Assembly (NCBI GenBank): GCA_050239825.1
Contig: JBFXGO010000002.1
Location: 13,490 to 77,489 of the forward strand
Length of the DNA stretch: 64,000 bases
Reading direction: 5' to 3'
From: a bacterium
Lineage (GTDB): Bacteria > Hydrothermota > 32-111
Part shown: in pieces, positions 154 to 48,220 of the stretch
Layout of the letters: each line of letters begins with the position of its first letter
Position numbering within the stretch: the first letter of the stretch is position 1
Program-made: the position numbers and the translations under genes
The notes under the pieces: generated by a model
What the model saw: the letters and a program-made list of their open reading frames with translations, nothing else
The model's database searches: none
What the model was told of the DNA's origin: nothing

Positions 154-309
154 CACAAATATATTCGCATAACACGCGTGACAACAACAACTTGCGTTTT
201 ATAAAACCTGTTTAGAAGGGAGGAATTCGGTGCGACAAAAGTTTACATTGTTTTCTCTATAAATATCTGTTTCGCGGAAATTTTTTAAGGGGGGGTCTGT
301 TATATTAAT

Positions 310-1614: not shown

Positions 1615-2484
1615 ATGGCAAAATTCCTTATCATTCAAAATCCTGTGGCAGGAAACGGGTCTTCCGTTGAATATCTCCCCGAAATAATTTCAACAATCGA
1701 AAGATTGAAAATTCCTTATGTTTTAAAAAAGACATCTGAGAAGTTTGATGCGCAAAAACATGTCAAAGAGTGGATGACTCCGGATATCACAGATATTGTT
1801 GTTGTCGGAGGAGACGGAACTCTAAATGAAGTTGTGAATGGGTTATATCCGCATCTGAAGCCGATACGGCTGATAAGCACGGGCACAGGGAATGACCTCG
1901 TGAAAAATCTGAAAGATTACACAATGGACAATCTATTTCTCACAAATGATTTTCATGCAATAGATTTGTTTACAGTAAATGACACTGTCGGGATAAATGC
2001 GCTCGGACTGGGTTTTGACGGAGAGGTTGTAAGCGAGATGGATGAAAAAAACCTCAAAATAAACGGAATGTTCGCCTACATGATTTTTGTTCTTTCCAAG
2101 CTCTTTAAATTCCGCGCTCCGCGGTATCATATAACTGCTGATGGTATAGATTACAGGGGAAAATACTACATTACATGCGTGGGAAACGGAAAAGCTGTCG
2201 GAGGGGGATTTTTCTTGACTCCCAAAGCGCACATTGAAGACGGAAATCTTGATATTTGCCTCATCAGTGACATTCCTATGATTTTAAGACCCTATTATCT
2301 TATTAAAGTCATGATGAAAATACATCCCGGAGATAAAAAGGTTATTTATAAACAGTTCAAAGAGATGATTATAAGAAGTTCAAGAAATATTATGGGGCAG
2401 GTTGACGGTCAGCTTGTAACAGGCAAAGAATTTGTTGTGAAGATTGTAAATGAAAAACTTCATATAGTCTCCCACAAACACTGA
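1615..2484 (+). CDS. Diacylglycerol/lipid kinase family protein (YegS/DgkB-like)
   Basis: NPVAG, GGDGTLNEVVNG, GTGND, GLGFD, GGGF and QVDG motifs. Confidence 0.9.
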   Translation: MAKFLIIQNPVAGNGSSVEYLPEIISTIERLKIPYVLKKTSEKFDAQKHVKEWMTPDITDIVVVGGDGTLNEVVNGLYPHLKPIRLISTGTGNDLVKNLKDYTMDNLFLTNDFHAIDLFTVNDTVGINALGLGFDGEVVSEMDEKNLKINGMFAYMIFVLSKLFKFRAPRYHITADGIDYRGKYYITCVGNGKAVGGGFFLTPKAHIEDGNLDICLISDIPMILRPYYLIKVMMKIHPGDKKVIYKQFKEMIIRSSRNIMGQVDGQLVTGKEFVVKIVNEKLHIVSHKH

Positions 2485-2499
2485 TTTTTTCAATCCCCC

Positions 2500-2995
2500 T
2501 GTAAAGACAAAATCTTACTCAGCAGTGTCACCCTGAACGCTTCTATGGTTATGACTATCGTGAAGGGTCTATCAGTTTATTGCTTATTGATAATTGAAGA
2601 TTGAGCTGGGGCTGCACGCGGGCATAGCGTCGACTCACACACTCCGCTTCGCCGCTTTATCAAGATGGGAAAGCGGAGCAAGGGGTCGGCCACTTGATGG
2701 GCGTCTGCGCGGAGCGTCCTCGCCGACTTGTAGCTTTCACTTTCAATAAGTTAATTAATTGATTGTCCTCATGAGAAGCATTGAAAAGACGAGCGCTGTG
2801 GACAGGCTTCTCATTCGGAATTGTAAAGACAAAATATTAATCAGCAGTATATTGAGTTATGACTGTACTGGAATTTTTCCTCGGAACTGTAAAGGCAATT
2901 TATTTACTCAGCTCCCCGTATTATGCGCATGGCACACGGCTCATGGCTCAAGGCTGATTTTGTGGCTGCACGCTGGCATAGCGTCGGCTCACACA
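2500..2995 (+). repeat. Short mosaic repeat locus: one full ~128-bp core (2608-2735), one partial core (2962-2995) and linker modules shared with the 41.8-43.65 kb array
   Basis: Near-identical to 41808-42034 and 43150-43325, e.g. TGTAAAGACAAAATCTTACTCAGC, GTCACCCTGAAC...GTGAAGGGTCT, CACTTGATGGGCGTCTGCGCGGAGCGTCCTCGCCGAC. Confidence 0.95.
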
Positions 2996-2997
2996 AC

Positions 2998-3144
2998 AAA
3001 GAGAGTTGAAAAGTAAAAGAGTTAAAATGTAGAAGGATTAAACAGAAGAAAAGTAAAAAATAAGAAATCAATTTTTAGCTTTTGTACTCTTTTACTCTCT
3101 CTTACCTCTTACTTTTCTTTCTTATACCTTCACATCTTCTCATT
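2998..3144. repeat. Degenerate ~8-bp-period purine tract followed by a pyrimidine tract
   Basis: GAGAGTTG AAAAGTAA AAGAGTTA AAATGTAG... then TTTTAGCTTTTGTACTCTTTTACTCTCTCTTACCTCTTAC... Confidence 0.6.
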
Positions 3145-3210
3145 AGGCAAACACAAATCTTGACTGAATCTATTTTTTGCATTATCATTATTTTTTAACA
3201 AGGAGTTGAT

Positions 3211-5988
3211 ATGGAGAAAAGAATCTCTCTTTTGCTTTCTTTTGTTTTGATACTTATTTTCATAAATCTTCACTCTCAAATCAGCGGTTTTGTATTTGAT
3301 TCCGCAAACGGTCTCCCGCTATACGGAGTCGAGGTGAAATCAAATGGGAATTTTCTATGCATTAGCGACATCAACGGATATTTTCATGCGGATACACCCG
3401 ACACAGAAGAGGTATCACTATCATTTTCAAAGGATGGTTATTCAAAAAAGGTTTTTAAGGAGAATTCTTCTTCAGGTTTCGTCACCATAAAACTTCTTCC
3501 CGCCAATGTTGATGTTTATTCTTCATTTACAAGATATTACAGGGATGCTTCACAGCTGAAATACTTTTCAAGAATGAGCTCAGCTGACAACTTAAACACT
3601 CTGCCGGGCAATGTCTCAGGCAGATACTCAAGGCTTGGAAGAGATAATTTTATTCTCTATTCCCTCAACTCTGCATCAATTCCATCTTCAAGGGAAATCG
3701 CTTTTTTTGACTATGACAGAGCAATCTACTCCCCCTCCGGGTATATCAATTCCTTCTCTGACAATTTGAGCGGAAGAGTTGATTTTATAACTGACGACAC
3801 ATTCAACAAAGACGGCTTCAATGCAGAGCTTGAGGGTTTTCAGAATTATCTCTCATTGGGAAGCGGATTTCGCAGATTTTCTCTCTCTTATCAGAATGCA
3901 ATCGGACACAAGACATCCTATTCGATAGACGCATCCATGTTATCATCAGATGAAAAGTCACTTCTCTTCATGAGGCGGCCCTCACATGTTTATGCAAATA
4001 TTGATACTGAGAATTATGCGTTCAAATACACATTTTATGATTATTTTGTGAACGGAGAGAATGAACTTGATTCTTTACATTCGACTCTTACCTGGACAGA
4101 AGATTCTATCCCATTTTTTTCGGAGAGGATAGAGACTCTCTTTATTAATGACACCCTCTCTGTTGTAAAGAGATCCGCTGTTTTGGATACCGTGATAAGA
4201 AACAGATTCACCGATGACTATTTTGACAAGACAATGTCTAATCCTCCGCACACTGCGACGAGGGATTATTCTACCACGCTCTCATTAAAGAGCAACATTT
4301 TTGAAAATGCTCTCTTGGGAGCATCATTATATCTCTTCTCCGAAAATAAAGAACTTTATAGTTCCGCATACAGATACAATGAAGAGGATTTTGCTTCTTC
4401 TTTAAGAAATGGCTATTTTTTAAAGGCATCAGCCATGATTTACATGGGCGGGTCGCGCTCACTGAGCATCCAAATATCAAACGGATATACTCATGATAAA
4501 ACAGCGCCATCACATATTGACACAATGATTGCCATTCATGATGACGGAACAACCGACACCCTCTTTCCGAAAGTCAATTCTCCTCTTGAGGCAATTCTGG
4601 ATCCGTTCAACCTCTTCGAATATGATGATTTCATGAATCTGGAGTATGACACAACCCCTTACTATAATGATTATCCATATATGACTCTCTATTGTGGTTA
4701 TGAGGGAAAGTACGGTTATTATATTGAGAAGAACACAACTACAAATGCACTCTGCGTTGACTATTCGATGAACTTCCTGCAGGGAAACAGAATAACATCG
4801 GGAGCCGGAGTCAAGCAGAAGAGTTACTCACAGACAAGTGTCTTTCTTCCCTGGGACCCATACTATTTTAAGGATACATATTCGACTTCCTCTCTCTTCG
4901 CATACGGCTACATAAGGGATGCATTTGAAAGAAACGGTGTTTTTCTTGATATGAATATCAAGACAGATTTTGTATCAAGAAGCGGAGTGGCTGTTGAAGA
5001 TTCTATTGTCGGAGAATCAAATAGCGCGGTTCTATCATACAGGTTCGGGTTGAGGGATATGCTGAATGAATACTCATCAATCAGATTCTCTGCTGAAAGG
5101 GCTATTCAACAGACAGACGAGACATACCTCTTCTCCTACAGAACAGATGAAATATTTTCAAACAAACAATACGGAGACCCGCTCATTGCGCCCGCATCCT
5201 CCGGTTTATACGATTTTGGATTCGCCTTTGACCTCCCATCGGGAATATATCTCAATTCAAGCATCTTTTACAGGGAGTTTGAGAACCTTATTAATACAGT
5301 GAGAATTGAAACGGTTCCGTCCCCATACAATATTTACAAAGCAAACGGTTACCTCTATGGAAAGGGTTTTGAAATTCTCTGCGGTTTAAAAAGAAGATAC
5401 ATTGACATTGAGGGGAGCTACACATTTTCAACCTGCATCGAATCTGTTGACTCTTTGGATTACATAAGGTCATTCTACCCGGATTACAGTTCAAGACATA
5501 AGATAAACATCCTTCACACATTCAAAATGCCCTTCTCCAAAGACGATAAAAATGACCTCATTCTATCCGTAAATCACAGCTTCCGTTCGGGAATGCCGGC
5601 AAATGAGGGCGATGGAAATTATTACATTTTACCGGATCTTTATCTGGCGGATTTGGCTCTCATCAAGCAAATCTTCTTTGAGAACCGTTCCATTCATTTT
5701 TATTTTAATGTCTCCAATCTCTTCAATGCAGAGACCATGATTAGAGTCTATTCAAATACTCTCGACCCTGACAGGGACTGGACTGAAGAGTTGGATGCCG
5801 ACACATTTGCCCAGTACAGAATCGGAGAGACCGGCTATGATGTGAGAAAGGATGCAGACAGAGATGGAATTGTTTCAAGCGAAGAAAATTATGATTTCAC
5901 TCTCGGAATGTACTATGATAGAGCTTATAATCCTTATAATTACACAACACCGAGGGAGTTCTCTTTCGGATTAAGAATAGGTATTTAG
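3211..5988 (+). CDS. Outer-membrane protein, TonB-dependent-receptor-like, with N-terminal carboxypeptidase-regulatory-like domain
   Basis: Signal peptide; ISGFVFDSANGLPLYGVEV...SDINGYF; GDPLIAP, NVSNLFN and terminal PREFSFGLRIGI are typical of TBDR barrels. Confidence 0.7.
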   Translation: MEKRISLLLSFVLILIFINLHSQISGFVFDSANGLPLYGVEVKSNGNFLCISDINGYFHADTPDTEEVSLSFSKDGYSKKVFKENSSSGFVTIKLLPANVDVYSSFTRYYRDASQLKYFSRMSSADNLNTLPGNVSGRYSRLGRDNFILYSLNSASIPSSREIAFFDYDRAIYSPSGYINSFSDNLSGRVDFITDDTFNKDGFNAELEGFQNYLSLGSGFRRFSLSYQNAIGHKTSYSIDASMLSSDEKSLLFMRRPSHVYANIDTENYAFKYTFYDYFVNGENELDSLHSTLTWTEDSIPFFSERIETLFINDTLSVVKRSAVLDTVIRNRFTDDYFDKTMSNPPHTATRDYSTTLSLKSNIFENALLGASLYLFSENKELYSSAYRYNEEDFASSLRNGYFLKASAMIYMGGSRSLSIQISNGYTHDKTAPSHIDTMIAIHDDGTTDTLFPKVNSPLEAILDPFNLFEYDDFMNLEYDTTPYYNDYPYMTLYCGYEGKYGYYIEKNTTTNALCVDYSMNFLQGNRITSGAGVKQKSYSQTSVFLPWDPYYFKDTYSTSSLFAYGYIRDAFERNGVFLDMNIKTDFVSRSGVAVEDSIVGESNSAVLSYRFGLRDMLNEYSSIRFSAERAIQQTDETYLFSYRTDEIFSNKQYGDPLIAPASSGLYDFGFAFDLPSGIYLNSSIFYREFENLINTVRIETVPSPYNIYKANGYLYGKGFEILCGLKRRYIDIEGSYTFSTCIESVDSLDYIRSFYPDYSSRHKINILHTFKMPFSKDDKNDLILSVNHSFRSGMPANEGDGNYYILPDLYLADLALIKQIFFENRSIHFYFNVSNLFNAETMIRVYSNTLDPDRDWTEELDADTFAQYRIGETGYDVRKDADRDGIVSSEENYDFTLGMYYDRAYNPYNYTTPREFSFGLRIGI

Positions 5989-9626: not shown

Positions 9627-11612
9627 TTGTGTTATCATTTCTTAATTATGAGGAATTTCATACTTTTCATTTGTCTGACATTCTTCCTATCTCTTAATGC
9701 AGAGAGATACATGGTTGAATTCAAAGATTATTTGCCCGAAAGAAAAGAGTATGGATTCATCAAGGCAAATTCCAAATATAATTTTATAGTTATAGATTCA
9801 GATTATGAAAAAATCAAGGCGTCATATCCCGATGCTGTAAAAATCTACAAAGAACCCAAGCTTTATGCTTTGTACACTCCCAACGACACATATTTTTCAT
9901 ACCAGTGGTCTCTCTGGGAAGAACATTACAATGTTTCATACCTTCTTGACAGGGGCATCCTCGGAAATTCGACAGTTATTATCGGAGTGCTCGATACCGG
10001 TGTTTCATTTGAAAACTATCCCATTCCGGCGAACGAACAGGGGCTTGTCATCTCTGCGACAAACGAGTATGAGATGTACTCTGACTTTGAAGGAATCAAT
10101 TTCGTGCAGGGTTATGATTTTGTATCGGACGATGCGCATCCCAATGACATGAACGGACACGGAACGGCTGTCACAAACGTCATCGCCTCAACCATAAACA
10201 ATTCCCTTGCAACTTCGGGAATAATTTTCAATGCATCAATAATGCCTCTTAGGGTGCTTGATGAAACAGGAGCCGGAAATCTCACAGACATACTCGATGC
10301 GATAGAATACGGAGTTGCAAACGGATGCAAGGTTCTCAATCTCTCATTAGGAGGAGAACCGGGCGATTCAAACGGATGGGACATACTCCACTCTGCGATA
10401 ATTGATGCGAGAAACAGCAATGTTATGGTTCTCGCGGCGGCAGGAAATGACGGAGTCTCAATGCTCTCATACCCTGCAGGATTTGAAGAGGCAATATCTG
10501 TCGGAGCAGTGGATTATTTTTTTGAAAGAACCCCCTATTCACAGTACGGAACAAACCTTGACTTCATGGCTCCGGGAGGATATGTCTATCAGGATATAAA
10601 CGGAGACGGAGAGGATGAGGGCGGAATACTCTGCCCCATGCCGGAGCAGACAGAGGATGGGGTAAATGTAAATGATTTTTATCTTTACTTTGTCGAGGGA
10701 ACCTCATTTTCGACACCGCATCTCAGCGCTCTTGCGGCTTTAATGTACTCTTTGGGATATTCCACTGTTGATGAGATAGTCAACCTTATGATAGACGGCT
10801 CAATAGACCTTGGAACGGCAAATTATGATAATGAATACGGCTGGGGTTACCCAAAACCCGAATCTCTATTTTCACAGCCTGTTGCAATCAAGACAATAGA
10901 TTTTGATGTTGCATCCGACATACTCTTCTTTTCAATGATTGTTTTGAATGACACATTCATGCTTGATTCGATAAACCTCTCATCCCTGCTTGTAAATGAA
11001 AAACTCAACTTCATTAGAGAGGGAAGTCTGATAATGGCGGAGTTCTCCTCTTCAAAATCAGGAATATACTCGGTAACCGCATTTGGCAGGAAGAATGGAG
11101 AAGCCTACAAATTCAAAAGAGATTTCGCTTTAAAGGCAATCACCGACCCTTCAAATGTTGTTTATCACGGAACCATAAAGATGTTTTCTGATTCACCCTT
11201 TGTTTTGTTCTTTGATGAAGGAAAAATAATCTCTTCTTCACACAATTCTTCAATAACCTTAACAATTCCTGCAGAAGATGCCGCCAGAAAAGAGGTTTTC
11301 TGCGGAGATATCTCGGTTCCTGCAAAAAGATATTCCGACAGAATAGAGTTTTCAATCTCTAAAAAAGGAACATACAGAATTTCCTCACTCTCTTCAAATG
11401 CGCACGCTCTTGATGATTCATTCTCAAAAAAGAGTTTGCTTCTTAAAACAAGCATTCTCAACCTTGAAGGGAAAGAAGGGATGCTCTTCGACAAAAGCGG
11501 AAGACTCCTCAAAGAATCTATCAAATCGCACATTTCATTTGAAGGCCTGCCATCAGGCATATATTTTATTGAATCAGAGAGAATGTTATGGAAAATAATA
11601 AAATTGTTTTAA
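9627..11612 (+). CDS. Secreted S8 (subtilisin-like) serine peptidase with Por-type C-terminal domain (likely start 9648)
   Basis: VLDTG, NGHGT, NLSLGG, AAAGN, GTSFSTPH catalytic motifs; tail DKSGR...LPSGIYFI. Confidence 0.9.
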   Translation: MCYHFLIMRNFILFICLTFFLSLNAERYMVEFKDYLPERKEYGFIKANSKYNFIVIDSDYEKIKASYPDAVKIYKEPKLYALYTPNDTYFSYQWSLWEEHYNVSYLLDRGILGNSTVIIGVLDTGVSFENYPIPANEQGLVISATNEYEMYSDFEGINFVQGYDFVSDDAHPNDMNGHGTAVTNVIASTINNSLATSGIIFNASIMPLRVLDETGAGNLTDILDAIEYGVANGCKVLNLSLGGEPGDSNGWDILHSAIIDARNSNVMVLAAAGNDGVSMLSYPAGFEEAISVGAVDYFFERTPYSQYGTNLDFMAPGGYVYQDINGDGEDEGGILCPMPEQTEDGVNVNDFYLYFVEGTSFSTPHLSALAALMYSLGYSTVDEIVNLMIDGSIDLGTANYDNEYGWGYPKPESLFSQPVAIKTIDFDVASDILFFSMIVLNDTFMLDSINLSSLLVNEKLNFIREGSLIMAEFSSSKSGIYSVTAFGRKNGEAYKFKRDFALKAITDPSNVVYHGTIKMFSDSPFVLFFDEGKIISSSHNSSITLTIPAEDAARKEVFCGDISVPAKRYSDRIEFSISKKGTYRISSLSSNAHALDDSFSKKSLLLKTSILNLEGKEGMLFDKSGRLLKESIKSHISFEGLPSGIYFIESERMLWKIIKLF

Positions 11613-37252: not shown

Positions 37253-39016
37253 ATGAACAAGCGGTGGAATCTCGACGCCCTATATCCTTCGTTTGAATCA
37301 AATGAATTTCTTGAAGATATCAAGACTCTGGATTTGGAGATTGCCGAGCTGATTGAGTTCGGAAATTCTGATTTTTCGGCAGACAAGAGGGCGGCTATTG
37401 AAAAATATATAGGGCTGGCGGAAAAATTTTATAACACACTTTACCGCCTCTTCGCCTTCTGTTCTCTCACCCTTGCAGTTGATACATCAAACAGTAGCGG
37501 AATGAATTTTAAGGATCTTCTTCTCAAGAAATCAAATTCGGCAACGGTTCCTTTCACAAAATTCCGCCTCTTTATAAAAGATTTAAACGACCTTGAAAAA
37601 CTCGCAGAAGAGAGCGCCACTATAAACTCCCACCTGTTTCATCTTAAAGAGATGCGCACATCTGCAAAACGCCTCTTCTCTCCGGAAATAGAGGAGATGG
37701 TATCAGACCTTCAGCGCACCGGCTCTTCGGCTTTCTCATCTCTCCAGAGTCAGCTCACGAGCAACCTCATCGTGAATGTAGAGGTTGACGGAAAAGTCAA
37801 GCCGATGTCCTTGGCGCAGGCAAGAAATCTCTACTATGAAAAAGACAAAGATCTTAGAAAGAGGGCATACGATGCAGAAATTTCTTCCTACTCACTTATT
37901 GAGACTCCATCATCTGCCTGCCTCAGTGCCATAAAGGGGGAGGTCATAACTCTCTCAAAGAGGCGCGGCTATTCATCCGCCCTTGAAATGACTCTTGAAG
38001 AGAGCAGAATGGATATGGATACTCTTGATGCCCTTCTTGGTTCAATGAGAACATCTCTCCCAATGTTCAGAAAATATTACAGACACAAGGCAAAGCTTCT
38101 TGGAAATAATGATAAATTGCCGTTTTATGACCTTGTTGCTCCGGTTGGACAAAGCAGAATCTTTTTCACCTATGAAGAGGCTGCCGATTATATTCTGAAG
38201 GCGGAGAGGAAATTCTCTCCGGAGATAGCTGATTTCATGAAGAATGCCTTCGATAATTCTTGGCTCGACATTGAGCCGAGAAAGGGAAAGCGCGGAGGCG
38301 CATTCTGCAGCACGATTTATTCAGTGCGCCAGTCAAGGATACTCGCAAATTTCAACGGCTCCTTCGATAATATGACAACTCTCGCGCATGAGCTGGGACA
38401 TGCCTATCATGGGTATGTTCTAATGGATGAAACCATTTTGAATTCTGATTATCCGATGCCTCTTGCAGAGACGGCTTCCATTTTTTCGGAGACTGTGGTT
38501 ATGGATTATTCTTTCAGGAATATGTCTGACGACAATCTTCTGACGATTCTTGAAAATGATATTTCAAGCGCCGCAACCGTTATTGTTGACATATATTCAA
38601 GGTATCTCTTTGAAACAGAGCTTTTCAGGCAGAGAGAATCATCCGTTCTTTCCGCAGACAAGCTGAAAGAGCTAATGTCAAAGGCTCAGATTGAAGCATA
38701 CGGAGACATTCTTAACGAAAAATTTCTGCATCCTTACATGTGGGCAAACAAACCTCACTACTATTATCCGGGAGCCAACTTCTACAATTTCCCCTATGCA
38801 TTCGGATTTCTCTTTGCGAAAGGTCTGTATGCCATATACAAAAAAAATCCTATAAATTTCACTGAAAAGTACAAAACTCTTCTCAGAGAGACCGGAAAGA
38901 ACACAATATACAATGTCGGTCTCTCAGCCGGCATAGACCTTCATAATAGGAAGTTTTATGACGACACATTTGAAATGATATCAGGCGACATTGAAAGGTT
39001 CTTGACAATGAAATGA
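37253..39016 (+). CDS. pepF: Oligoendopeptidase F (M3B)
   Basis: GGAGG and ATG at 37253; WNLDALY, GKRGGAFC, AHELGHAYH, AETAS, FYNFPYAFG. Confidence 0.9.
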   Translation: MNKRWNLDALYPSFESNEFLEDIKTLDLEIAELIEFGNSDFSADKRAAIEKYIGLAEKFYNTLYRLFAFCSLTLAVDTSNSSGMNFKDLLLKKSNSATVPFTKFRLFIKDLNDLEKLAEESATINSHLFHLKEMRTSAKRLFSPEIEEMVSDLQRTGSSAFSSLQSQLTSNLIVNVEVDGKVKPMSLAQARNLYYEKDKDLRKRAYDAEISSYSLIETPSSACLSAIKGEVITLSKRRGYSSALEMTLEESRMDMDTLDALLGSMRTSLPMFRKYYRHKAKLLGNNDKLPFYDLVAPVGQSRIFFTYEEAADYILKAERKFSPEIADFMKNAFDNSWLDIEPRKGKRGGAFCSTIYSVRQSRILANFNGSFDNMTTLAHELGHAYHGYVLMDETILNSDYPMPLAETASIFSETVVMDYSFRNMSDDNLLTILENDISSAATVIVDIYSRYLFETELFRQRESSVLSADKLKELMSKAQIEAYGDILNEKFLHPYMWANKPHYYYPGANFYNFPYAFGFLFAKGLYAIYKKNPINFTEKYKTLLRETGKNTIYNVGLSAGIDLHNRKFYDDTFEMISGDIERFLTMK

Positions 39017-39029
39017 TTTTGATTAGAAT
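39002..39029 (+). promoter_or_regulatory. Sigma-70-type promoter for dnaA
   Basis: TTGACA-16 nt-TAGAAT, overlapping the pepF stop. Confidence 0.6.
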
Positions 39030-39043
39030 GATTTTCCCTTGAG

Positions 39044-40405
39044 TTGTATTTAAAAAAGAAAATGAAAACATTAAATGATCAGTTGCACAAAATCCTTTCA
39101 GAGAAAGTGTCATCCGCCGATTACAGCCGCTGGCTCTCTTCTCTCCGCATAAAGGAGCTTGACGAAAGAAGCATTACGCTTATTGTTCCGACCAATGTTA
39201 TAAAAGAGATGATAGAGGATGATTTGTTTCAGGAGCTTGTGGATTCCATCCGCTCTATTATGGATAGGGACCTTCAGATAAGAATCGTTGCAGAGAAGGA
39301 CATTCATGACATCCCAAAGGAGCTCAACCCGTTTAAAAACAATGATTTTGGAATAATAGACACATCATCTCTCAACACAAAATATACTTTCGAAGAATTT
39401 GTCGTGGGAAAATCAAACGAACTCGCTTATGCCGCATCTTTCTCCTTGACAAAGACTCCTGGCGACCAGTACAATCCGTTATTTATATACGGTTCGAGCG
39501 GGCTCGGAAAGACGCATCTGTTAAATGCGATAGGAAATCAGATTAAGCAGAATGACCCGAGAAAGAAGATCTATTACCTTTCAACGGAGAGATTTCTCAA
39601 CGAATATGTCTTTGCCATTCAAGAGAAGAAAATTCTTGATTTCAGAAACAAATACAGGGAGATGGATGTTCTGCTGCTTGATGATATTCATTTCCTGAAT
39701 AAAAAAGAGGGAACGCAGGAGGAGATTTTTCACACATTCAACGCACTGTATGAAAACAACAGTCAGATTGTTTTAACATCAGACAGACCTCCCAATGAAA
39801 TTCAATCTCTTGAACAGCGGCTTGTTACAAGATTTCAGTCAGGACTCGTAGTCGACATACAGCCGCCCGATTTTGAAACAAGATTGGCGATACTAAGAAA
39901 GAAGGTGGAGAGCGACAACATACAGATAGGCGATGATTGTCTTATCTACATCGCCAATAACATTAAAAATAATGTCAGGCTTTTAATTTCAGTCATTATA
40001 AACATACTCGCGCACTCTTCTCTTCTTAAAAAGAATGTCGATATAAATCTGGTGAGAGAGGTCGTAACAGGAATAGTGAAGCCGACCCATGATTCTGTTT
40101 TTTACAGTAAAAAAATTATGCCTGCGGATATTTTGAAGACAGTCTCTGAATATTATAAAATTCCCGAATCCCAGATAACAGGAAAAAAGCGCACTGCATC
40201 ACTGGTTATACCCAGACAGATATCGGCATTCCTTATGAAGAAGTTCACTCAACTCTCCTTAAAGGAGATAGCAGAAAAACTGGGAAAGAAGGACCACTCG
40301 ACAATCATACACGCTGTAAAAAAGATTGAAGAGCTCTCCAAAAGGAATGACAGCAGAGTAAAAGAGGATATTGAGAGCATAATCAGTTTATTGAATATTG
40401 ATTAG
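39044..40405 (+). CDS. dnaA: Chromosomal replication initiator DnaA (likely start 39062)
   Basis: YTFEEFVVGKSN, NPLFIYGSSGLGKTHL, LLDDI, QEEIFHTFN, DHSTIIHA. Confidence 0.98.
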   Translation: MYLKKKMKTLNDQLHKILSEKVSSADYSRWLSSLRIKELDERSITLIVPTNVIKEMIEDDLFQELVDSIRSIMDRDLQIRIVAEKDIHDIPKELNPFKNNDFGIIDTSSLNTKYTFEEFVVGKSNELAYAASFSLTKTPGDQYNPLFIYGSSGLGKTHLLNAIGNQIKQNDPRKKIYYLSTERFLNEYVFAIQEKKILDFRNKYREMDVLLLDDIHFLNKKEGTQEEIFHTFNALYENNSQIVLTSDRPPNEIQSLEQRLVTRFQSGLVVDIQPPDFETRLAILRKKVESDNIQIGDDCLIYIANNIKNNVRLLISVIINILAHSSLLKKNVDINLVREVVTGIVKPTHDSVFYSKKIMPADILKTVSEYYKIPESQITGKKRTASLVIPRQISAFLMKKFTQLSLKEIAEKLGKKDHSTIIHAVKKIEELSKRNDSRVKEDIESIISLLNID

Positions 40406-40581
40406 CTGTGGATAATATAAGAACAACTTTGGTTTTTCCACATCAACTTCGGTTAACAACATAATTGTGAATATGTCTGTTGATTTTAAGGTGTAATTTT
40501 GATATAATTTAATACGGTTATGAACATATGGACACTTAATAATAGAAGTAATAAGAAAATTAATACTATAAAGGAGGAGAG
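40406..40581. other. Replication origin oriC
   Basis: Perfect DnaA box TGTGGATAA (40407-40415); near-matches TTTTCCACA (40434-40442), TGTGAATAT (40466), TTATGAACA (40518); DnaA-trio-like TAATAATAGAAGTAATAAG (40537-40555); AT-rich; between dnaA and dnaN. Confidence 0.85.
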
Positions 40582-41691
40582 ATGAAATTTCACGTTGACA
40601 AACAAGAGTTTTTGAAAAACCTCAATACAATATCAAGCATTGTTCCTGCAAAACCCATTGTAACAATAATCTCCAATATTATGATTGAAGCGAAAAAAGA
40701 GACATTGTCATTTTCCTCTACTGATTTTGAAATAACAATGCATTCAGAGATGCCTGCAACAGTCACTGAGGACGGAGTGATTGTTATAAATGCAAAGACA
40801 ATAGTTGAACTTGTAAGAAAACTTCCTGAAGGCGAACTCTCAATATCTCTCTCCAATGATGAAGTATCTATAAAATCAAAGTCAGGCATTTATAAAATGC
40901 CTGTAATCAAGAAAGATGATTATGTGGAAATTTCAAGAATAGAAAAAAACAAGATGTTCAATGTTGATTCTCTTCCATTGAAATCTGCAATAGACAATTC
41001 AGTATTTGCAGTTTCCAAAGATGCCGTAAAAGTTGCAATAACCGGAGTTCTTCTTGAAGGAGCCGGAAAGAATCTGACATTTGTTGGAACAGACGGACAC
41101 AGGTTGGCATTTTATTCAATCAAAGATATTTTTGAAAAACCCATATCAAATTCTGTTATAATTCCTCCAAAGGTTTTGACGATTCTTAGAGACCTTATTG
41201 ATGATGTGGATGAATTCAGCATGGGTTTTGATGAAAAGAGAATTATGTTCAAAGTCAAGACAATAGAAGTCTGGGCAAAACTCATAGAGGGTACATATCC
41301 TGATTACAAACGAGTCATACCAACGGATAACAATAAAGTCATGATTGTCAAAAAGGATGACCTTATAAATTCTCTTAACATAATAAATGTGTTTACAAAT
41401 CCAAATACGAGGCTTGTCAAATTTGAAATAGAGAGCGGCAAGCTTATAATAAATGCGTATCAGAATCAGACAGGAGAGGGGACGGAGTTTATCGAAGTCG
41501 ACTATGAAGATAAAGAGAAGCTTGTGATAGGATTCAACAATAACTATCTTCTTGAAATACTAAAACGGATAGAGACTGAGAATGTAAAGTTTAAATTCAA
41601 GGGAGAGATGTTTGCTGTGATAGTTGAAAACGAAATGAGCAAGGTTGATCAGGAGGCAATTTATATTATAATGCCTCTCAGATTAAAGTAA
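40582..41691 (+). CDS. dnaN: DNA polymerase III beta sliding clamp
   Basis: STDFE, GTDGHRLA, LIEGTYPDYKRVIP, IGFN, IMPLRL. Confidence 0.97.
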   Translation: MKFHVDKQEFLKNLNTISSIVPAKPIVTIISNIMIEAKKETLSFSSTDFEITMHSEMPATVTEDGVIVINAKTIVELVRKLPEGELSISLSNDEVSIKSKSGIYKMPVIKKDDYVEISRIEKNKMFNVDSLPLKSAIDNSVFAVSKDAVKVAITGVLLEGAGKNLTFVGTDGHRLAFYSIKDIFEKPISNSVIIPPKVLTILRDLIDDVDEFSMGFDEKRIMFKVKTIEVWAKLIEGTYPDYKRVIPTDNNKVMIVKKDDLINSLNIINVFTNPNTRLVKFEIESGKLIINAYQNQTGEGTEFIEVDYEDKEKLVIGFNNNYLLEILKRIETENVKFKFKGEMFAVIVENEMSKVDQEAIYIIMPLRLK

Positions 41692-41715
41692 AAACAGATT
41701 TATATTATTGAGTGC

Positions 41716-41744
41716 AAAGAGGCGGGGTAACTCCCGCCTCTTTT
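41716..41744 (+). terminator. Rho-independent terminator after dnaN
   Basis: AAAGAGGCGGG-GTAACT-CCCGCCTCTTTT. Confidence 0.85.
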
Positions 41745-41807
41745 ATTGAAAATGTAAAAGAGTGAAAATATAGGAAGGTTAGAATGTGAGGGAGATTGAG
41801 TAAAGCT

Positions 41808-43654
41808 AAAATCTTACTCAGCGGTGTCACCCTGAACGCCTCTATGGTTATGACTATCGTGAAGGGTCTATCAGTTTATTGCTTATTGATAATTGAAGAT
41901 TGAACTGGGGCTGCACGCAGGCGTAGCGTCGGCTCACACACTCCGCTTCGTCGCTTTATCAAGATGGGATAGCGTAGCGAGGGGTCGCCCACTTGATGGG
42001 CGTCTGCGCGGAGCGTCCTCGCCGACTTTGAGCTTTCATTTTCAATAAGAATTGATTTGCTTGTCCTCGGAAAAACATTGAATAGCAGTGCGGAGATGCA
42101 CTGGAATTTTTCCTCGGAAATGTAAAGACAAAATCTTACTCAGCTCCCCGTATTTTGCTCAAGGCACATGGCTCACGGCTCATGGCTGATTTTGGGGGCT
42201 GCACGCGGGTGTAGCGTCGGCTCACACACTCCGCTTCGCCGCTTAATCAAGATGGGATAGCGTAGCAAGGGGAGAACCACTTGATGGGCGTCTGCGCGGA
42301 GCGTCCTCGCCGACTTGTAGCTTTCGTGTATCAATAAGTTAATTAATTGATTGAATCTTCACAAAGCATTGGCGAGGGTGTAATGTGCGCGAGCGCACAT
42401 GATAGACGCCTCGGGCTGCACCAGAACTTTGTGAAGATTACTGTAAAGACAAAATCTTACTCAGCGGTGTCACCCTGAACGCCTCTATAGTTATGACTAT
42501 CGTGAAGGGTCTATCAGTTTATTGGTTATTGATAATTGAAGATTGTTCTGGGGCTGCACGCGGGTGTAGCGTCGGCTCACACACTCCGCTTCGCCGCTTA
42601 ATCAAGATGGGTTAGCGGAGCAAGGGGACAACCACTTGATGGGCGTCTTCGCGGAGCGTCCTCGCCGACTTTGAGCTTTCACTTTCAATAAGTTAATTAA
42701 TTGAATGAATCTTCTAAAACCATTGGCTGGGGTGTAATGGACGCGAGCGCACATGATAGACACTTCGGGTTGCACCAGAACTTTGTGAAGATTATTGTAA
42801 AGACAAAATCTTACTCAGCAGTATCACCCTGAACGCCTCTATGGTTATGACTATAGTGAAGGGTCTATCAGTTTATTGTTAATTGATTATTGAAGATTGT
42901 TCTGGGGCTGCTGGCGGGCTTAGCGTCGGCTCGCACACTTCGCTTCGCCGCTTAATCAAGATGGGATAGCGGAGCAAGAGGTCGCCCACTTGATGGGCGT
43001 CTGCGCGGAGCGTCCTCGCCGACTTGTAGCTTTCGTGTATCAATAAGTTAATTAATTGCCTGAATCTTCTAAAACCATTGGCGCGGGTGTAATGGACGCG
43101 AGCGTCCATGATAGAAAAAACGGGTTGCACCAGAAGTTTTAGAAGATTATTGAAAAGAATAAATATTAATCAGCAGTATATTGAGTGATGACTGCACTGG
43201 AATTTTTCCTCGGAAATGTAAAGACAAGTTATTTACTCAACTCCCCGCATTAAGCTCAAGGCACATGGCTCACGGCTCATGGCTGATTTTGGGGCTGCAC
43301 GCGGGTGTAGCGTCGGCTCACACACTCTGCTTCGCCGCTTAATCAAGATGGGTTAGCGGAGCAAGGGGACAACCACTTGATGGGCGTCTGCGCGGAGCGT
43401 CCTCGCCGACTTGTAGCTTACACTCTCAATAAGAATTGATTTGCTTGTCCTCGGAAAAACATTGAATAGCAGTGCGGAGATGCACTGGAATTTTTCCTCG
43501 GAAATGTAAAGACAAAATCTTACTCAGCGGTGTCACCCTGAACGCCTCTATGGTTATGACTATCGTGAAGGGTCTATCAGTTTATTGTTAATTGATTATT
43601 GAAGATTGTTCTGGGGCTGCACGCGGGTGTAGCGTCGGCTCACACACTCCGCTT
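41808..43654 (+). repeat. Non-coding tandem mosaic array of structured repeats
   Basis: ~128-bp cores start at 41907, 42195, 42550, 42904, 43291 and (partial) 43613; period 288-387 bp; linkers are reused modules; no credible ORF. Confidence 0.97.
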
Positions 43655-43663
43655 TTGCTCCTA

Positions 43664-43692
43664 TTGACAATATTGTTTAAATATTATATATT
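43664..43692 (+). promoter_or_regulatory. Sigma-70-type promoter of the PBP1A operon
   Basis: TTGACA-17 nt-TATATT, 8 nt before the ATG. Confidence 0.65.
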
Positions 43693-43700
43693 GAAATATT

Positions 43701-45839
43701 ATGGTTAAAAAAGCATTTAAAAATTTTAAAAAGAGCAAGAAGACCAAAAAAACAGTAAACACCGCGATATTTGTTTTTGGACTTATTGTTTTTATTGCTG
43801 TCTTTGCGGCAGTGGGCTTTGCAGTTACAATGTATTTCAGTCTTCAGAAAGAGATTCCAACCATGACAGATATGTTCATATACTCGGCTCCTTCAGCCAC
43901 TTTGATATATGATGACAACAACAGAAAAGTGACGGAACTCTTCCTTGAGAAAAGGATGCCGATTAAACTCAAAGAGCTACCTCAATACTCGATAGACGCA
44001 GTCATATCGCTTGAAGATCAGCAATTTTACTCGCATTGGGGAATAAATGTAGCGAGATTTTTTGTGGTTTTGACAAAGAATATGCTGACATTAAAAAAAG
44101 GAGCGGGAGCATCTACCATAACACAACAGCTTGCAAGGAACATGTTCCTCACAATGGAGAAGACATGGACAAGGAAGATAAAAGAGGCTCTCATAACCAT
44201 AAATCTTGAGCGCAACTTTTCAAAGGATGAAATTCTTGAAATGTATTTCAACCAGATAAACTATGGCTCGGGAGCTTACGGCATAGAGGCCGCATCAAAC
44301 ATGTATTTCAATAAATCTGCGCGGGAGCTCACTCTTGCAGAGGCAGCAATGCTTGCGGGAATTCCGCAGATTCCGGAAAAATTCAATCTTTTCAGGCATT
44401 ATGACAATGCCAAAAAACGCCAGAAGCTATGTCTAAGCAATATGCTTCAAGAAGGATACATATCAAAGGAAGAGTATGAGGATGCCGTTGATGACAGTGT
44501 GATAGTGATAAAAGGCTCCAAAGATGCAGAGTATGGAAGATACTTTATAGAGGAGGTCAGAAAAGAGGTCATATCAAGGTTTGGCATGAATACTCTCTAT
44601 AAGGGCGGTCTGAAAATCTATACAACAATGAATTCCGATATGCAGAGAGAGTCAGAAAAAGTTGTGGAAAAAAAGATGCTCTATTTTGAAAAAATGTACA
44701 AATTCAAAAATACAAAAGAAAAGTATGATGAAATATTTTCAAAAGACACGGCAATAACTGTTCCCCCGCAGTATCTTCAGGCAAGTATGGTAATAATTGA
44801 AAATGAGACAGGAGAGGTCAAGGCAATAGTCGGAGGCAGGGATTTTGAACAGTCCGAATACAACAGGGTCTTACAATCGAAGAGGCAGCCCGGTTCAATT
44901 TTTAAAATATTCCTCTTTTCAGCCGCAATAGAGAGCGGGATGAATCCGGGAGACATAATTATGGATACTCCGGTGGTTCTTGACGACGGAAGTGACACCC
45001 CGTATAAACCGAGAAATTTCGACGGGGATTTTTTGGGGCCTATACCTTTGCGCAAAGCTCTTGCACTTTCAAGAAATGTAACGGCTATTAGGCTTATAAA
45101 GAGCATAGGACCCGGAACTGTAGTAAAACACGCAAAGAAGCTGGGAGTTGAATCGCAGTTGACTCCGGTGCTCTCTCTGGCTCTCGGTTCAAGTGATGTC
45201 ACTCTCTTTGAAATGGTGAGGGCATTCTCCGTATTTCCAAACAAAGGAATACTCAGAAAGACGAGCATGATACGATATATTGAGGATGCTCAGGGAAATG
45301 TGATTTTTGAAAATGACAATCTTGAATCAAGAGTGATGGATGACGATGACGCATACATAGTGACAAACATGCTTGAAAGCGTTGTAAAAGAAGGCACTGC
45401 GGCTGGGCTTAAATATTACAAGTTCAATGTGCATATAGGCGGAAAGACGGGAACTACCGATGATTATTCGAATACATGGTTTGTTGGTTTTACAAAAGAG
45501 TATACCGCTGGTGTCTGGGTGGGCTTCGACAAACTCCGCACAATAGCCGATAAGGCAACCGGAGCGGTGCTTGCGCTTCCGATATGGGCTGAGACAATGA
45601 AGCCCTTTGTCAACAATGCCGATTCTCTGCCGTTTCCTCAGACAGACAGTATAATCCATGTGACAGTATGCCGCGAATCCGGGCAGATAGCAACGAAATA
45701 CTGCAAGTTCATACGGGATGAAATATATAAAAAAGGTCACGAACCCAAGGTGAGTTGTGAAAAGCATATAAAGGGCTACTCAACCAATCAGGATTTTGAT
45801 TTTTCAAAACAGGACATTCTCAAAGATGATGACCTGTGA
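43701..45839 (+). CDS. Class A penicillin-binding protein (PBP1A family)
   Basis: EDQQFYSHWG, GASTITQQLARN, RKIKE; transpeptidase SIFK, SRN, KTGT. Confidence 0.95.
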   Translation: MVKKAFKNFKKSKKTKKTVNTAIFVFGLIVFIAVFAAVGFAVTMYFSLQKEIPTMTDMFIYSAPSATLIYDDNNRKVTELFLEKRMPIKLKELPQYSIDAVISLEDQQFYSHWGINVARFFVVLTKNMLTLKKGAGASTITQQLARNMFLTMEKTWTRKIKEALITINLERNFSKDEILEMYFNQINYGSGAYGIEAASNMYFNKSARELTLAEAAMLAGIPQIPEKFNLFRHYDNAKKRQKLCLSNMLQEGYISKEEYEDAVDDSVIVIKGSKDAEYGRYFIEEVRKEVISRFGMNTLYKGGLKIYTTMNSDMQRESEKVVEKKMLYFEKMYKFKNTKEKYDEIFSKDTAITVPPQYLQASMVIIENETGEVKAIVGGRDFEQSEYNRVLQSKRQPGSIFKIFLFSAAIESGMNPGDIIMDTPVVLDDGSDTPYKPRNFDGDFLGPIPLRKALALSRNVTAIRLIKSIGPGTVVKHAKKLGVESQLTPVLSLALGSSDVTLFEMVRAFSVFPNKGILRKTSMIRYIEDAQGNVIFENDNLESRVMDDDDAYIVTNMLESVVKEGTAAGLKYYKFNVHIGGKTGTTDDYSNTWFVGFTKEYTAGVWVGFDKLRTIADKATGAVLALPIWAETMKPFVNNADSLPFPQTDSIIHVTVCRESGQIATKYCKFIRDEIYKKGHEPKVSCEKHIKGYSTNQDFDFSKQDILKDDDL

Positions 45840-45848
45840 GGAGGCAAA

Positions 45849-46499
45849 ATGAAATTCTTGGCAGTAATGCTTCTTATGATAATAATTGCGATGTCAATCT
45901 ATGGCATTTACTACTATTATCAGTCATATAAACCGGCGTTAGACAAGTACTCTGAACTGGTAAGTGAAAACAAGACACTTGCAGAGTATATAAGCAAGCT
46001 GAGGTCTGAGCAGATGAAGAAGGACAGCGTACTCTCCATTCTTGCCAATTCAAAGAGTGATGTGGATACTCAGATAATTTTTGACAACATAACCGGAACA
46101 AGAATAACTCTGGAATCGGAAAATCTCTTTGAATCCGGAGGATACACTCTCAATAAAAAAGGAAAGGGTCTTCTGAAAAAGACCGCAGAGGTGCTTCTTA
46201 CAATGTCTGATGCGGAGATTGTCATAGAGGGACACACAGACAATCAGAAGATAGGACCCTCAATAAAAAATGTCATTCCGTCAAACTGGGAATTATCTGC
46301 GCTGAGGGCGATAAATGTGATGAAGTATCTGAGGGATTCAATAGGAATTGAGGAGAAGAGAATGTATGTTGCGGCATACGGCGAGACAAGACCCATTGCA
46401 GATAACAGCACCGAAGAGGGAAAGAAAAAGAACCGCAGAATTGAAATATTTCTTAAAGGTTCATCCTTCAACAAGATTGTTGAGGATACTCTAGAGTGA
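45849..46499 (+). CDS. OmpA/MotB-family peptidoglycan-binding protein
   Basis: N-terminal TM and coiled coil; IEGHTDN, NWELSALRA, YGETRP, NRRIEI. Confidence 0.9.
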   Translation: MKFLAVMLLMIIIAMSIYGIYYYYQSYKPALDKYSELVSENKTLAEYISKLRSEQMKKDSVLSILANSKSDVDTQIIFDNITGTRITLESENLFESGGYTLNKKGKGLLKKTAEVLLTMSDAEIVIEGHTDNQKIGPSIKNVIPSNWELSALRAINVMKYLRDSIGIEEKRMYVAAYGETRPIADNSTEEGKKKNRRIEIFLKGSSFNKIVEDTLE

Positions 46500-47374
46500 A
46501 GCGCAGAATACTGCATCTCTTTTCAGGCGGTCTGGACTCAATACTCTCATATAAAATACTTGAAAGAGCGGGACATGATGTTACCGCCATCTGTTTTGAA
46601 ACTCCATTCTTTCCATCCGCAAAAAGTGTTGAGTACGGAGATAAAAATAAAATAAAAGTAAGAGTATTGAATATTTTTAAAGAGTATGTTTATATGCTTG
46701 CTCGACCTAAGTATGGATACGGCAAGAACTTAAACCCATGCATTGACTGCAAGGCGATGATGATAAACAAAGCGTGCAGAATCGCGATTGACGAAGGGTA
46801 TGATTTTGTTTCCACAGGAGAGGTTCTCGGACAGAGGCCTATGTCACAGACAAAAGGAGGGTTCATCAAGCAAAAAAAATTGCTTGAACATCCGGAAATG
46901 GTGATAAGAGTTCTGTCGAGAGAGGATGGAGAGAACAACCTTGAGGGAATGAAAAGAATTGAAATTGTCGGAAGAGAGAGAGCGGCTCAGATGAAGATGA
47001 GCGAAGAGATTGGGATAACAGAGTATCAAACACCATCCGGAGGATGCTTTCTCACATATAAAGAGTTTTCCTTAAAGGCGAAAGTTCTTCTGAAAAAGAA
47101 TCTGACAGAGGAAAGATATTTTTACATGATTAAAGAGGGGCGGTTCAAAGAGTACTCCTGCGGAGTTGCTGTGATTGGAAGATGCGAGGAGGATAATGAG
47201 AAGCTTTTATCGCGAAGAAATGGAGAGGTTTGCTATCAGGTGATTGATGGAAAGGGTCCGGTAGGAATTGTGTTGGGAAAACTGAATGATGAAGAAGAAA
47301 ATGATTTGAAAGAGACTCTTTTGAAATATTCAAAGAGAGATATAAATGAAAAAGATTCTATTCACCCTGTTTAG
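46496..47374 (+). CDS. PP-loop ATPase, ThiI/MnmA-related putative tRNA thiolation protein
   Basis: FSGGLDS, NPCIDCK, GEVLGQRPMSQ, PSGGCFLT. Confidence 0.8.
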   Translation: MKRRILHLFSGGLDSILSYKILERAGHDVTAICFETPFFPSAKSVEYGDKNKIKVRVLNIFKEYVYMLARPKYGYGKNLNPCIDCKAMMINKACRIAIDEGYDFVSTGEVLGQRPMSQTKGGFIKQKKLLEHPEMVIRVLSREDGENNLEGMKRIEIVGRERAAQMKMSEEIGITEYQTPSGGCFLTYKEFSLKAKVLLKKNLTEERYFYMIKEGRFKEYSCGVAVIGRCEEDNEKLLSRRNGEVCYQVIDGKGPVGIVLGKLNDEEENDLKETLLKYSKRDINEKDSIHPV

Positions 47375-47681
47375 CTTATTTGTCTTAATCCACCTCAACG
47401 CAGAAGATCTCTGGGTTCCGCCGGTTCTCTCTCTAATATTTCCGGGAGGCGGACAGGTGTATAACAAAGATTATTTAAAGGCGGGAATATTTGCGGCTGC
47501 AGAGATAACAACTGCCGCAGTTTTATACAAAGAATTTAAATCCGAAGGAGAAAGAACCCTGCTATACAGGGATATTCTTGCAGGAGTCATTCTCTTTTCA
47601 ATTCTTGACGCATATGTTTCCAAAGAACTTAAAGAGATAAAAGAAGGGGAGGTTCTATCAGATACACTGCCGAAGAAATAA
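47346..47681 (+). CDS. Small hypothetical exported/membrane protein (DUF5683-like)
   Basis: Signal peptide; SLIFPGGGQVYN..Y.K; DAYV. Confidence 0.65.
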   Translation: MKKILFTLFSLFVLIHLNAEDLWVPPVLSLIFPGGGQVYNKDYLKAGIFAAAEITTAAVLYKEFKSEGERTLLYRDILAGVILFSILDAYVSKELKEIKEGEVLSDTLPKK

Positions 47682-48220
47682 GAGAATGCTTTAAATCCAG
47701 TAAGATAGATATTTCAAAAAAACAAGCGGAATCATTTGAATTATACCTCAACCTCATAGTTAAATGGAACAAGAGTGTCTCCCTCGTTTCTCACAGAGAT
47801 GAGATATCTCTGATTGAAAAACACCTTCTTGATTCTGCCGCAGGTTTGGTTTCCTCGGGGATAGAAGACAAAGAAAAGATAACGGATTTGGGTTCCGGTA
47901 ATGGATTTCCTGCAATCCCGATAAAAATTCTGCTTCCCGATACGATTGTGGATATGGTTGAAGTAAACCAGAGAAAAGCTGCGTTTTTGAAAGAGGCTGT
48001 AAGAGTTCTTGAAATACAAAACATCAATGTCCTATGTGAAAGAGTTGAGGATTATGAATTCTCTTTCACAGAAAAAATTACAGCGAGGGCTTTTAAACCC
48101 ATAGAAGAAATTAAAAAGATTCTTTTGCCCTCAAGGTTCTGCGGAGAGATTATTGTCTGGGAAAAGAGAAGTGGCGCAAGAGTCGCAAAATACCCGTTCT
48201 GTAATGTGGAAAAGATGTGA
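47657..48220 (+). CDS. rsmG: 16S rRNA m7G527 methyltransferase RsmG (GidB); start extended upstream of the ORF-track call
   Basis: The frame upstream of 47846 stays open and encodes YLNLIVKWNKSVSLVS...HLLDS; then DLGSGNGFP, RKAAFL, TARAF; located next to parAB. Confidence 0.88.
   Translation: MRYTAEEIRECFKSSKIDISKKQAESFELYLNLIVKWNKSVSLVSHRDEISLIEKHLLDSAAGLVSSGIEDKEKITDLGSGNGFPAIPIKILLPDTIVDMVEVNQRKAAFLKEAVRVLEIQNINVLCERVEDYEFSFTEKITARAFKPIEEIKKILLPSRFCGEIIVWEKRSGARVAKYPFCNVEKM

Follow-up and report, generated by a model that had tools for sequence, protein, structure and literature searches.

An array of a genus-specific, probably REP/BIME-type mosaic repeat downstream of dnaN in a bacterium of the Hydrothermota, and its candidate TIRYT-like transposases

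REP and BIME repeats, and the domesticated transposases that go with them, are best known from Proteobacteria. Small intergenic repeats of other kinds include the enterobacterial ERIC/IRU elements, which are imperfect palindromes about 127 bp in length and mostly stand as single units with their own terminal inverted repeats, and the neisserial intergenic mosaics, which are delimited by 20-bp dRS3 repeats. Here we describe a gene-free array of structured repeats that lies between dnaN and the gene of a class A penicillin-binding protein (PBP1A) in a 64,000-nucleotide stretch, hereafter the window, of the genome of an uncultured WOR-3-type bacterium (GTDB lineage Hydrothermota; 32-111; assembly GCA_050239825.1, contig JBFXGO010000002.1, positions 13,490 to 77,489). 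With a probability that we put at roughly 0.6, this array belongs to a genus-specific mosaic repeat of the REP/BIME type that forms about 39 arrays in the genome and is probably mobilised by TIRYT enzymes and enlarged locally. The firmest part of this reading is that the family is a non-coding, mosaic and non-autonomous DNA repeat, which is very probable; that the TIRYT enzymes mobilise it is, taken by itself, a tentative proposal with slightly less than even odds. A first-pass annotation of the window had offered two readings of the array, and the one of a BIME/REPIN-like non-autonomous family whose enzyme is encoded elsewhere gained ground from the genome-wide spread of the repeat, its non-coding and mosaic make-up, an empty site in a sister species and candidate Y1 transposase genes at other loci.

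In function and form the family is closest to the BIMEs of E. coli and Pseudomonas (PMC3333891, PMC3116915), with which it shares the layout of an intergenic non-coding mosaic of a palindrome and a few linkers, a tandem number that varies between strains or species, a tag 5′ of the hairpin foot, and an HUH Y1 enzyme whose genes lie elsewhere, at a few loci. Di Nocera et al. sort REP elements by two tags, GTAG and CGTC (PMC3733652); the REP-associated Y1 enzyme of E. coli depends, for both binding and cleavage, on the GTAG that precedes the hairpin foot (PMC3333891). The differences are nevertheless considerable. The REP/BIME palindrome measures 20–40 nt (30–40 nt), whereas the one found here takes up about 100 nt of the 134-bp core; in REP clusters the units alternate with their inverted form, whereas the cores of an array here share one orientation; and the repeats of a REPtron flank the Y1 gene, whereas the core does not, only R1, the terminal repeat of one Y1 gene, being shared with the arrays. 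In addition, CGTC is here better conserved than GTAG, and the host belongs to the WOR-3 lineage. Since three features of REPtrons (unit size, inverted pairing and flanking repeats) were not found, we do not file the family as a member of REP/BIME.

The enzyme genes resemble a second described layout, the TIRtron, defined by Di Nocera et al. in 2013 (PMC3733652), whose TIRYT enzymes Quentin et al. in 2018 equate with TnpA_REP subclass 2.1 (PMC6006769). The likeness lies in the C-terminal region of the four Y1 genes found here, their long terminal inverted repeats (TIRs) and the presence of gene-less repeat dimers. These two papers describe TIRYT repeats as unrelated to REPs, except for two Pseudomonas fusions of a REP with a stem-loop, whereas here one repeat family is fused, in a single orientation, to the head of arrays of a GTAG/CGTC-tagged palindrome. 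Miniature inverted-repeat transposable elements (MITEs) end in inverted repeats that belong to a known transposase and are bordered by a target-site duplication; the arrays showed no such duplication at two filled/empty comparisons, and their left ends are defined but their right ends ragged. By description the family can also be likened to ERIC/IRU elements and neisserial mosaics in its unit size, long imperfect palindrome, intergenic position and tendency to cluster with other repeat families into mosaics. CRISPR arrays combine short identical repeats with unique spacers, whereas here the repeat is 134 bp long and the head and tail modules that would be the spacers recur 23–56 times genome-wide at 70% coverage or more, so that the earlier exclusion of CRISPR holds. 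The first-pass annotation had also ranked the array as its top candidate for an undescribed system; this is overstated, and we regard it as a new family of a known kind of element.

Layout of the array and extent of the family

Five full copies of the core (K) lie head to tail on the plus strand, starting at 41907, 42195, 42550, 42904 and 43291 of the window, and a sixth copy on the same strand, starting at 43613, comprises core positions 1–42 only; all six starts agree with those first reported. The core-to-core spacing is 288, 355, 354 and 387 bp, and Tandem Repeats Finder detects a 354-bp period across 42195–43179 with 89% matches. The remaining parts are a 24-nt head motif (H), the head modules A and B and the tail modules C and D. 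Module BLAST gave the order A-K-C-H-B-K-D-H-A-K-D-H-A-K-D(part)-fusion-B-K-C-H-A-K(1–42), which reproduces the order claimed before; a 35-nt piece, the C-tail, occurs three times in the array at 100% identity. The array was said to be GC-rich, and its GC content is indeed 42–52%, compared with 31–36% in the neighbouring upstream 300-bp bins (40500–41699) and about 40% in the whole window. The flanking genes are dnaA, dnaN and the class A penicillin-binding protein gene. The features of the locus, all on the plus strand, are as follows.

40582–41691, plus: dnaN (DNA polymerase III beta clamp; Pfam DNA_pol3_beta domains 1–3), upstream neighbour, outside the element
41719–41745, plus: dnaN terminator, hairpin and T run (sequence, terminator scan); the array starts after it, and an equivalent hairpin stands at the empty site of sister genome G002
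41756–41799, plus: A/G-rich edge module, which also edges other arrays (similarity to other arrays starts at C3:55245, i.e., window 41756)
41800–41822, plus: degenerate copy of the 24-nt H motif (a pile of 28 starts of high-scoring segment pairs, HSPs, at 41800)
41823–41906, plus: head module A (module BLAST)
41907–42040, plus: core copy 1 (variable leader, GTAG-CGTC, long imperfect palindrome of about 100 nt)
42041–42119, plus: tail module C, which forms a hairpin; its inner stem (42086–42103) is terminator-like
42120–42194, plus: H motif and head module B
42195–42328, plus: core copy 2
42329–42443, plus: tail module D, a hairpin closed by GAATCTTCACAAAG / CTTTGTGAAGATT
42444–42549, plus: H motif and head module A
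42550–42683, plus: core copy 3
42684–42903, plus: tail D, H motif and head A
42904–43037, plus: core copy 4
43038–43290, plus: variant of tail D, fusion piece (H variant, start of A, end of C), H variant, head B
43291–43424, plus: core copy 5
43425–43612, plus: tail C, H motif and head A
43613–43654, plus: truncated core (positions 1–42), the end of the array, inside the 5′ arm of the palindrome (114 HSP ends pile at 43654)
43664–43692, plus: promoter-like site of the PBP1A gene (TTGACA, 17 nt, TATATT), conserved at the G002 empty site, outside the element
43701–45839, plus: class A penicillin-binding protein gene (Pfam Transgly and Transpeptidase), downstream neighbour
2499–2995, plus: second, small array of the family in the window, H-A-K-tail-B-K(3–34) (C3:15988–16484)

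The second window array likewise stops within the 5′ arm of a core. A coding role of the array is ruled out: each of its six frames is interrupted by 29–36 stops, and even the best frame is open in at most 50 of the 77 core copies, in agreement with the earlier description of the array as gene-free and devoid of cassette reading frames.

The reality of the locus was checked in a sequencing run that contains 77% of the words of the window. Mis-assembly of reads from a dispersed family at a locus that in truth holds one unit or none is highly improbable. Such an artefact would fit with the behaviour of the long contigs of this run, which stop at 41837 and 43625 and leave the array unbridged, and with the frequent ending of sister-genome contigs at these repeats. 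However, both unique flanks reach about 30 nt into the array at the single-copy depth of 26.7–26.9; pieces specific to junctions of this array (42115–42186, 42504–42564 and 43200–43262) have a depth of 14–36, near single copy; arrays of 2–6 cores were assembled at 22 of the 39 loci; and the family is present in three genomes and in metagenome contigs. Only contig pieces of 60–165 nt cover the interior, where the summed depth of bins is 166–3329 (at least 475 in all but one), as expected for a family of about 100 copies. The dnaN–PBP1A array locus is real, and since contigs stop at its edges and only short pieces lie inside, the number and order of its units are given by the assembly alone.

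In the source genome (G000; 2.1 Mb in 67 contigs, denoted C plus number) the core gave 125 BLAST matches, 104 of them of at least 110 bp, and 131 nhmmer matches, 106 near-full. They form 39 arrays of 1–6 cores, always gene-free, which total 40.8 kb, i.e., 1.9% of the genome and, by crude calls of open reading frames, 23% of the intergenic DNA. All cores within an array lie on one strand according to the BLAST list; the composite locus C39 contains opposite-strand pieces. The range of the family is narrow: the core was found by BLAST in 3 of 41 related genomes and by a covariance model, built from 65 non-redundant core copies, in 3 of 101 genomes of the phylum, in both cases within one genus. 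The search of relatives by such a model had been proposed as a check in the first-pass annotation. G000 holds several-fold more core copies than either sister genome (G001 and G002), the counts of which are minima because their contigs often end in the repeat. The repeat family accounts for the many intergenic breaks in assemblies of this genus.

A pattern scan detected the core at 12 loci of the genome collection and in 9 metagenome contigs, and the 12 loci are titled candidate division WOR-3 bacterium, unclassified “bacterium” or, in one case, as a metagenome-assembled genome (MAG) of Vulcanibacillus. This last locus (L052, Vulcanibacillus sp. by title) carries a core up to 94% identical to copies of G000 together with H, R1-like and C18-type repeats; its flanks gave no tblastx match to G000 at E ≤ 1e-8, and its core reflects either mis-binning or horizontal transfer. 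A second core type was noted at C28:27031, C35:20343, C43:7544 and C54:15145 and, in G001, downstream of dnaN (L040); it has the same leader and ...GTAGCG, followed by CTCATTCG... where the usual core has TCGGCTCACAC. Further repeat families of 50–80 nt, with dozens of matches in G001 and G002, were seen at L073 19037–19087 and at L074 16948–17027, 15687–15735 and 9169–9218 (C27 and C28 of G000). The genus is generally rich in small intergenic repeats.

Gain, growth and exchange of arrays

The spacer between dnaN and the PBP1A gene measures 98 bp in G002, whose dnaN is 83.5% identical to that of the window at the DNA level, vs. 1966 bp in G000. A second array, C50:98321–99406, corresponds to a 34-bp gap in G002. 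In each case the array follows the stop codon or terminator of one gene and precedes the promoter of the gene after it, which is intact, and the window array disrupts neither the dnaN terminator nor the PBP1A promoter. The comparison of orthologous sites covered six loci with eight arrays. In G002 two of them had their flanks on a single contig and were empty; in G001 a single contig carried both flanks at two other loci, which were not scored as empty because of their different repeat content and masked N runs; at the remaining loci, and for the other sister genome at these four, contigs broke or one flank was absent. The site of the C35 array holds a TIRYT element and a partial core in G001 instead. 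Judged from these alignments, the dnaN–PBP1A array appears to have arisen after the split from the sister species. The module grammar, the variation from one to six cores and the empty sites together give the picture of a BIME-like mosaic with variable tandem number.

Cores within an array are more alike than cores of different arrays (mean identity 0.903 vs. 0.863, p = 6e-10), and among the 70 cores of multi-core arrays the best match lies in the same array for 28 and elsewhere for 42. Both local duplication and exchange between arrays therefore occur. This bears on the possibility that the family is satellite-like DNA with no dedicated enzyme, spread by slippage, unequal crossing-over and gene conversion, with TIRYT repeats merely co-accumulating in permissive intergenic sites. 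The greater likeness within arrays, the 28 cores nearest to a neighbour in their own array, and the presence of all four head/tail combinations, as recombination at shared modules would give, agree with it. Recombination alone, however, does not seed 39 dispersed loci or new sites between stop codon and promoter that are empty in a sister species, and 42 of the 70 cores have their best match in another array. We consider the satellite explanation rather unlikely, and two further observations against it are given below.

The ends of the arrays are polar, defined at the left and ragged at the right. Left ends start at H, at R1, at the A/G-rich module or at core position 1, and no array starts with a 3′ core fragment as judged by nhmmer. 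Right ends fall within the 5′ arm of a core in about 12 of the 39 arrays by eye and in 4 of the 39 by nhmmer, the latter count being lower since the model misses short leader fragments. Of all the modules H has the sharpest boundary, with HSP ends piling up directly after ...CAGC. It could thus be imagined as the attachment site of an integron-like cassette array, in which circular head-core-tail-H units would be inserted by a recombinase encoded elsewhere. H does stand between all tails and heads, it forms the start or end of many arrays, and heads and tails combine freely across it. Against such an arrangement, the window array ends inside a core and not at H, as do about 12 of the 39 arrays by eye; the empty sites of G002 contain no clear H; a Pfam scan of the six genes flanking the window array, limited to this array, suggests no recombinase; and no IS110-type gene was found in G000. 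A cassette array is accordingly a distinctly unlikely explanation.

Tag, fold and strand orientation of the core

The 134-bp core consists of a variable 16-nt leader, GTAG-CGTC and a hairpin of about 100 nt. Of 65 non-redundant copies, 39 have GTAG in columns 17–20, 58 have NTAG there and 62 continue with CGTC. The tag is located just 5′ of the hairpin foot, with the outer stem GTCGGC...GCCGAC starting directly after it, followed by an inner stem (CTCCGC/GCGGAG) and an apical stem-loop. The core thus shows an unpaired GTAG/CGTC at the 5′ foot of an imperfect palindrome, the arrangement that marks REP/BIME elements. Pair 37:107 covaries, with U-A replacing C-G in 15 sequences; four further pairs show double-sided changes, each in one sequence, and the other 16 are invariant or change on one side only. 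Three unrelated apical hairpins fill the same position in different subfamilies. The fold is moderately better than that of shuffled sequences (z-score −2.2 with DNA and −2.3 with RNA parameters), and the fold energies of the two strands differ by about 1 kcal/mol, with opposite sign under RNA vs. DNA parameters. This near-equal stability on both strands suits a DNA palindrome more than a strand-specific RNA.

The tagged strand is the strand of positive GC skew, calculated for the flanking 30 kb, in 33 of the 39 arrays (p = 1.4e-5), and it is the G-rich strand in 31 of the 39 when the skew is taken from intergenic DNA only. The same holds for 14 of the 17 arrays in divergent or convergent gene contexts (p = 0.013), while arrays between co-directional genes point in the same direction as the genes in 13 of 15 cases. 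This strand bias is the first of the two further points against satellite-like spread. Around dnaA in the window, positive GC skew marks leading-strand sequence; if it does so elsewhere, the tagged strand is presumably the lagging-strand template, the strand on which the Y1 transposases of the IS200/IS605 family act (PMC3333891, PMC6006769).

The other reading of the first-pass annotation, tandem genes of structured non-coding RNAs, to which RNA-level cis elements (small RNAs, mRNA stabilisers or terminators) can be added, has to be considered against these data. GC-rich modules in an AT-rich genome, conserved hairpins with one covarying pair and swapped apical stems, the 13 of 15 arrays aligned with co-directional genes and the terminator-like stem and T run of tail C are all in keeping with RNA. 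On the other hand, three promoter-like sites were found in the region vs. 3.6 expected, none of them internal to the array; the Rfam scan of 38000–48000, the check that could have assigned the array to a described RNA family, matched nothing in it at E ≤ 1, with one chance match to a long non-coding RNA outside it; the fold energy is near equal on both strands; loci are present or absent between sister species and array ends are ragged; and the strand bias persists where local transcription is symmetric. We therefore consider RNA genes or RNA-level elements unlikely.

The array had been described as lying next to oriC, and its proximity to a probable origin is confirmed. The 177-bp dnaA-dnaN spacer contains a perfect DnaA box (40407–40415) and a one-mismatch box (both within 40407–40442), and the cumulative GC skew has its minimum near 36–40 kb of the window, which makes it probable that the origin lies there. 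A functional link did not hold up. No DnaA box with up to one mismatch was found in the array, and the link is rejected because 38 other arrays exist and G002 lacks an array between dnaN and the PBP1A gene. The array has no bearing on origin function.

Candidate enzymes and their link to the arrays

Four Y1 (HUH) genes were found in G000, each bracketed by inverted repeats.

C5:4330–5109: Y1 gene (element with inverted repeats, C5:4299–5154)
C14:63662–64483: Y1 gene (element, C14:63633–64522)
C56:11012–11902: Y1 gene (element, C56:10995–11938)
C18:43111–44016: Y1 gene (element, C18:43061–44060)

For all four proteins NCBIfam NF047646 (REP-associated tyrosine transposase) is the top-scoring family, at 57–73 bits and with the full profile covered; the NHYHL (HUH) motif and the Y...NP motif are invariant, and each protein has an extra C-terminal region that in two of them matches helix-turn-helix (HTH) profiles. 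The bracketing repeats are 25–28 bp long, identical in three pairs and 96% identical in one, and each starts with TAG[G/C]G[A/G]CGG. Their outer motif, GGGACGG or, in G001, GGGGACGG, closely resembles the published GGGGWSAS. Inverted pairs without a gene, 100–210 bp apart, exist for every repeat type. The enzyme genes show what characterises TIRYTs and TIRtrons, namely a Y1 domain with HUH and Tyr, a C-terminal HTH, and long TIRs that form a repeat family.

Examples of the gene-less pairs, which resemble MITEs or REPIN doublets, are C14:36253–36467, C28:13894–14107, C41:22134–22347 and C47:6390–6605, as well as C19:6834–6985 and 9970–10121 and C22:10779–10905; in a further genus, g4, the motif AGGGACGGTGGTT is abundant as pairs about 125–146 bp apart, without the core. 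The C5 and C56 elements lie directly beside tRNA-gene-like sequence, and one G001 element lies beside tRNA-Pro. At C27:42781–43106 three tandem units of about 150 nt each repeat the last 26–34 nt of the adjacent tRNA gene; these look like the serial integration of a small element at the 3′ end of the tRNA gene, and the same arrangement is present in G001. Partners of two other kinds were considered and dismissed: G000 has no PF07282 match, as a TnpB/IscB guide RNA would require, and no PF01548 match, as would be needed for an IS110 bridge RNA.

The link between enzymes and arrays is provided by R1, the terminal repeat of the C5 gene. At up to five mismatches, R1 has 22 copies in G000, two of which flank the C5 gene. 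Twelve of the 22 lie in core arrays, compared with 23% expected from the array share (p = 4e-4), and 11 of these 12 are on the core strand. R1 stands within 11 nt of the left edge of the array in seven arrays and never at the right edge, which is the second point that speaks against satellite-like spread. In several places it directly precedes a core in place of head A or B, and C14:11092–11402 consists of tandem units of R1 and core positions 1–53. The succession of R1 and core was also found in L052 of the genome collection, in the metagenome contig L071 and in G002 (L104). G001 and G002 possess the orthologous TIRYT gene, flanked by this repeat or one almost identical to it. Core and terminal repeat share a TAG-SGNCGG start (TAGCGTCGG vs. 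TAGGGACGG), and in G001 a partial core precedes one Y1 element by about 130 nt, with masked sequence in between.

On this basis we propose that TIRYT/RAYT-like Y1 (HUH) transposases encoded elsewhere may nick the repeat units on the lagging-strand template and move them in single-stranded form, and that local tandem duplication, together with recombination between arrays at shared modules, would then enlarge and shuffle the arrays. The action of the enzymes on the core and the single-strand route are our inference; co-location and the shared TAG-SGNCGG start point to the former. A more specific version, which we regard as doubtful, is that the TIRYT repeat primes a head-to-tail, strand-polar copying of the palindrome on the lagging-strand template, the arrays being both substrate and product.

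Several observations weigh against mobilisation of the family by these enzymes. The 600 bp around each of the four Y1 genes of G000 contain no core or module match, so the core does not show the flanking position by which classical REPtrons are recognised; the window array contains no R1; and in genus g4 the terminal-repeat motif is present in 25 (G005) and 17 (G008) copies with no core, and the enzyme system thus exists without arrays. The agreement in strand of R1 and core in 11 of 12 cases does not differ significantly from that of two elements oriented separately by the skew (p = 0.15), and the equation of the G-rich strand with the lagging-strand template is an assumption, as GC skew and gene strand run together. 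Covariation of the core is thin, with one strongly covarying pair. The Y1 scores remain below the NCBIfam equivalog cut-off of 80 bits, a PDB sequence search with the C5 protein gave nothing at E ≤ 0.01, and TIRYT enzymes are, in the available parts of PMC6006769, described from sequence analysis only. Finally, no target-site duplication was seen at the two filled/empty comparisons and no defined right end of the unit was found; like the absence of a core flanking a Y1 gene in G000, these also agree with satellite-like DNA.

If copying is indeed primed by the TIRYT repeat, this would give the arrays their fixed left and ragged right ends, and it would provide a first handle on the role of the biochemically uncharacterised TIRYT class, as well as an example of a REP-like system that builds direct arrays and not inverted doublets. 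The core and R1 form a concrete pair of candidate substrates for a TIRYT enzyme. For this uncultured WOR-3-type genus, the analysis points to one replication-oriented mosaic family that expanded recently in one species and is joined to a TIRYT repeat.

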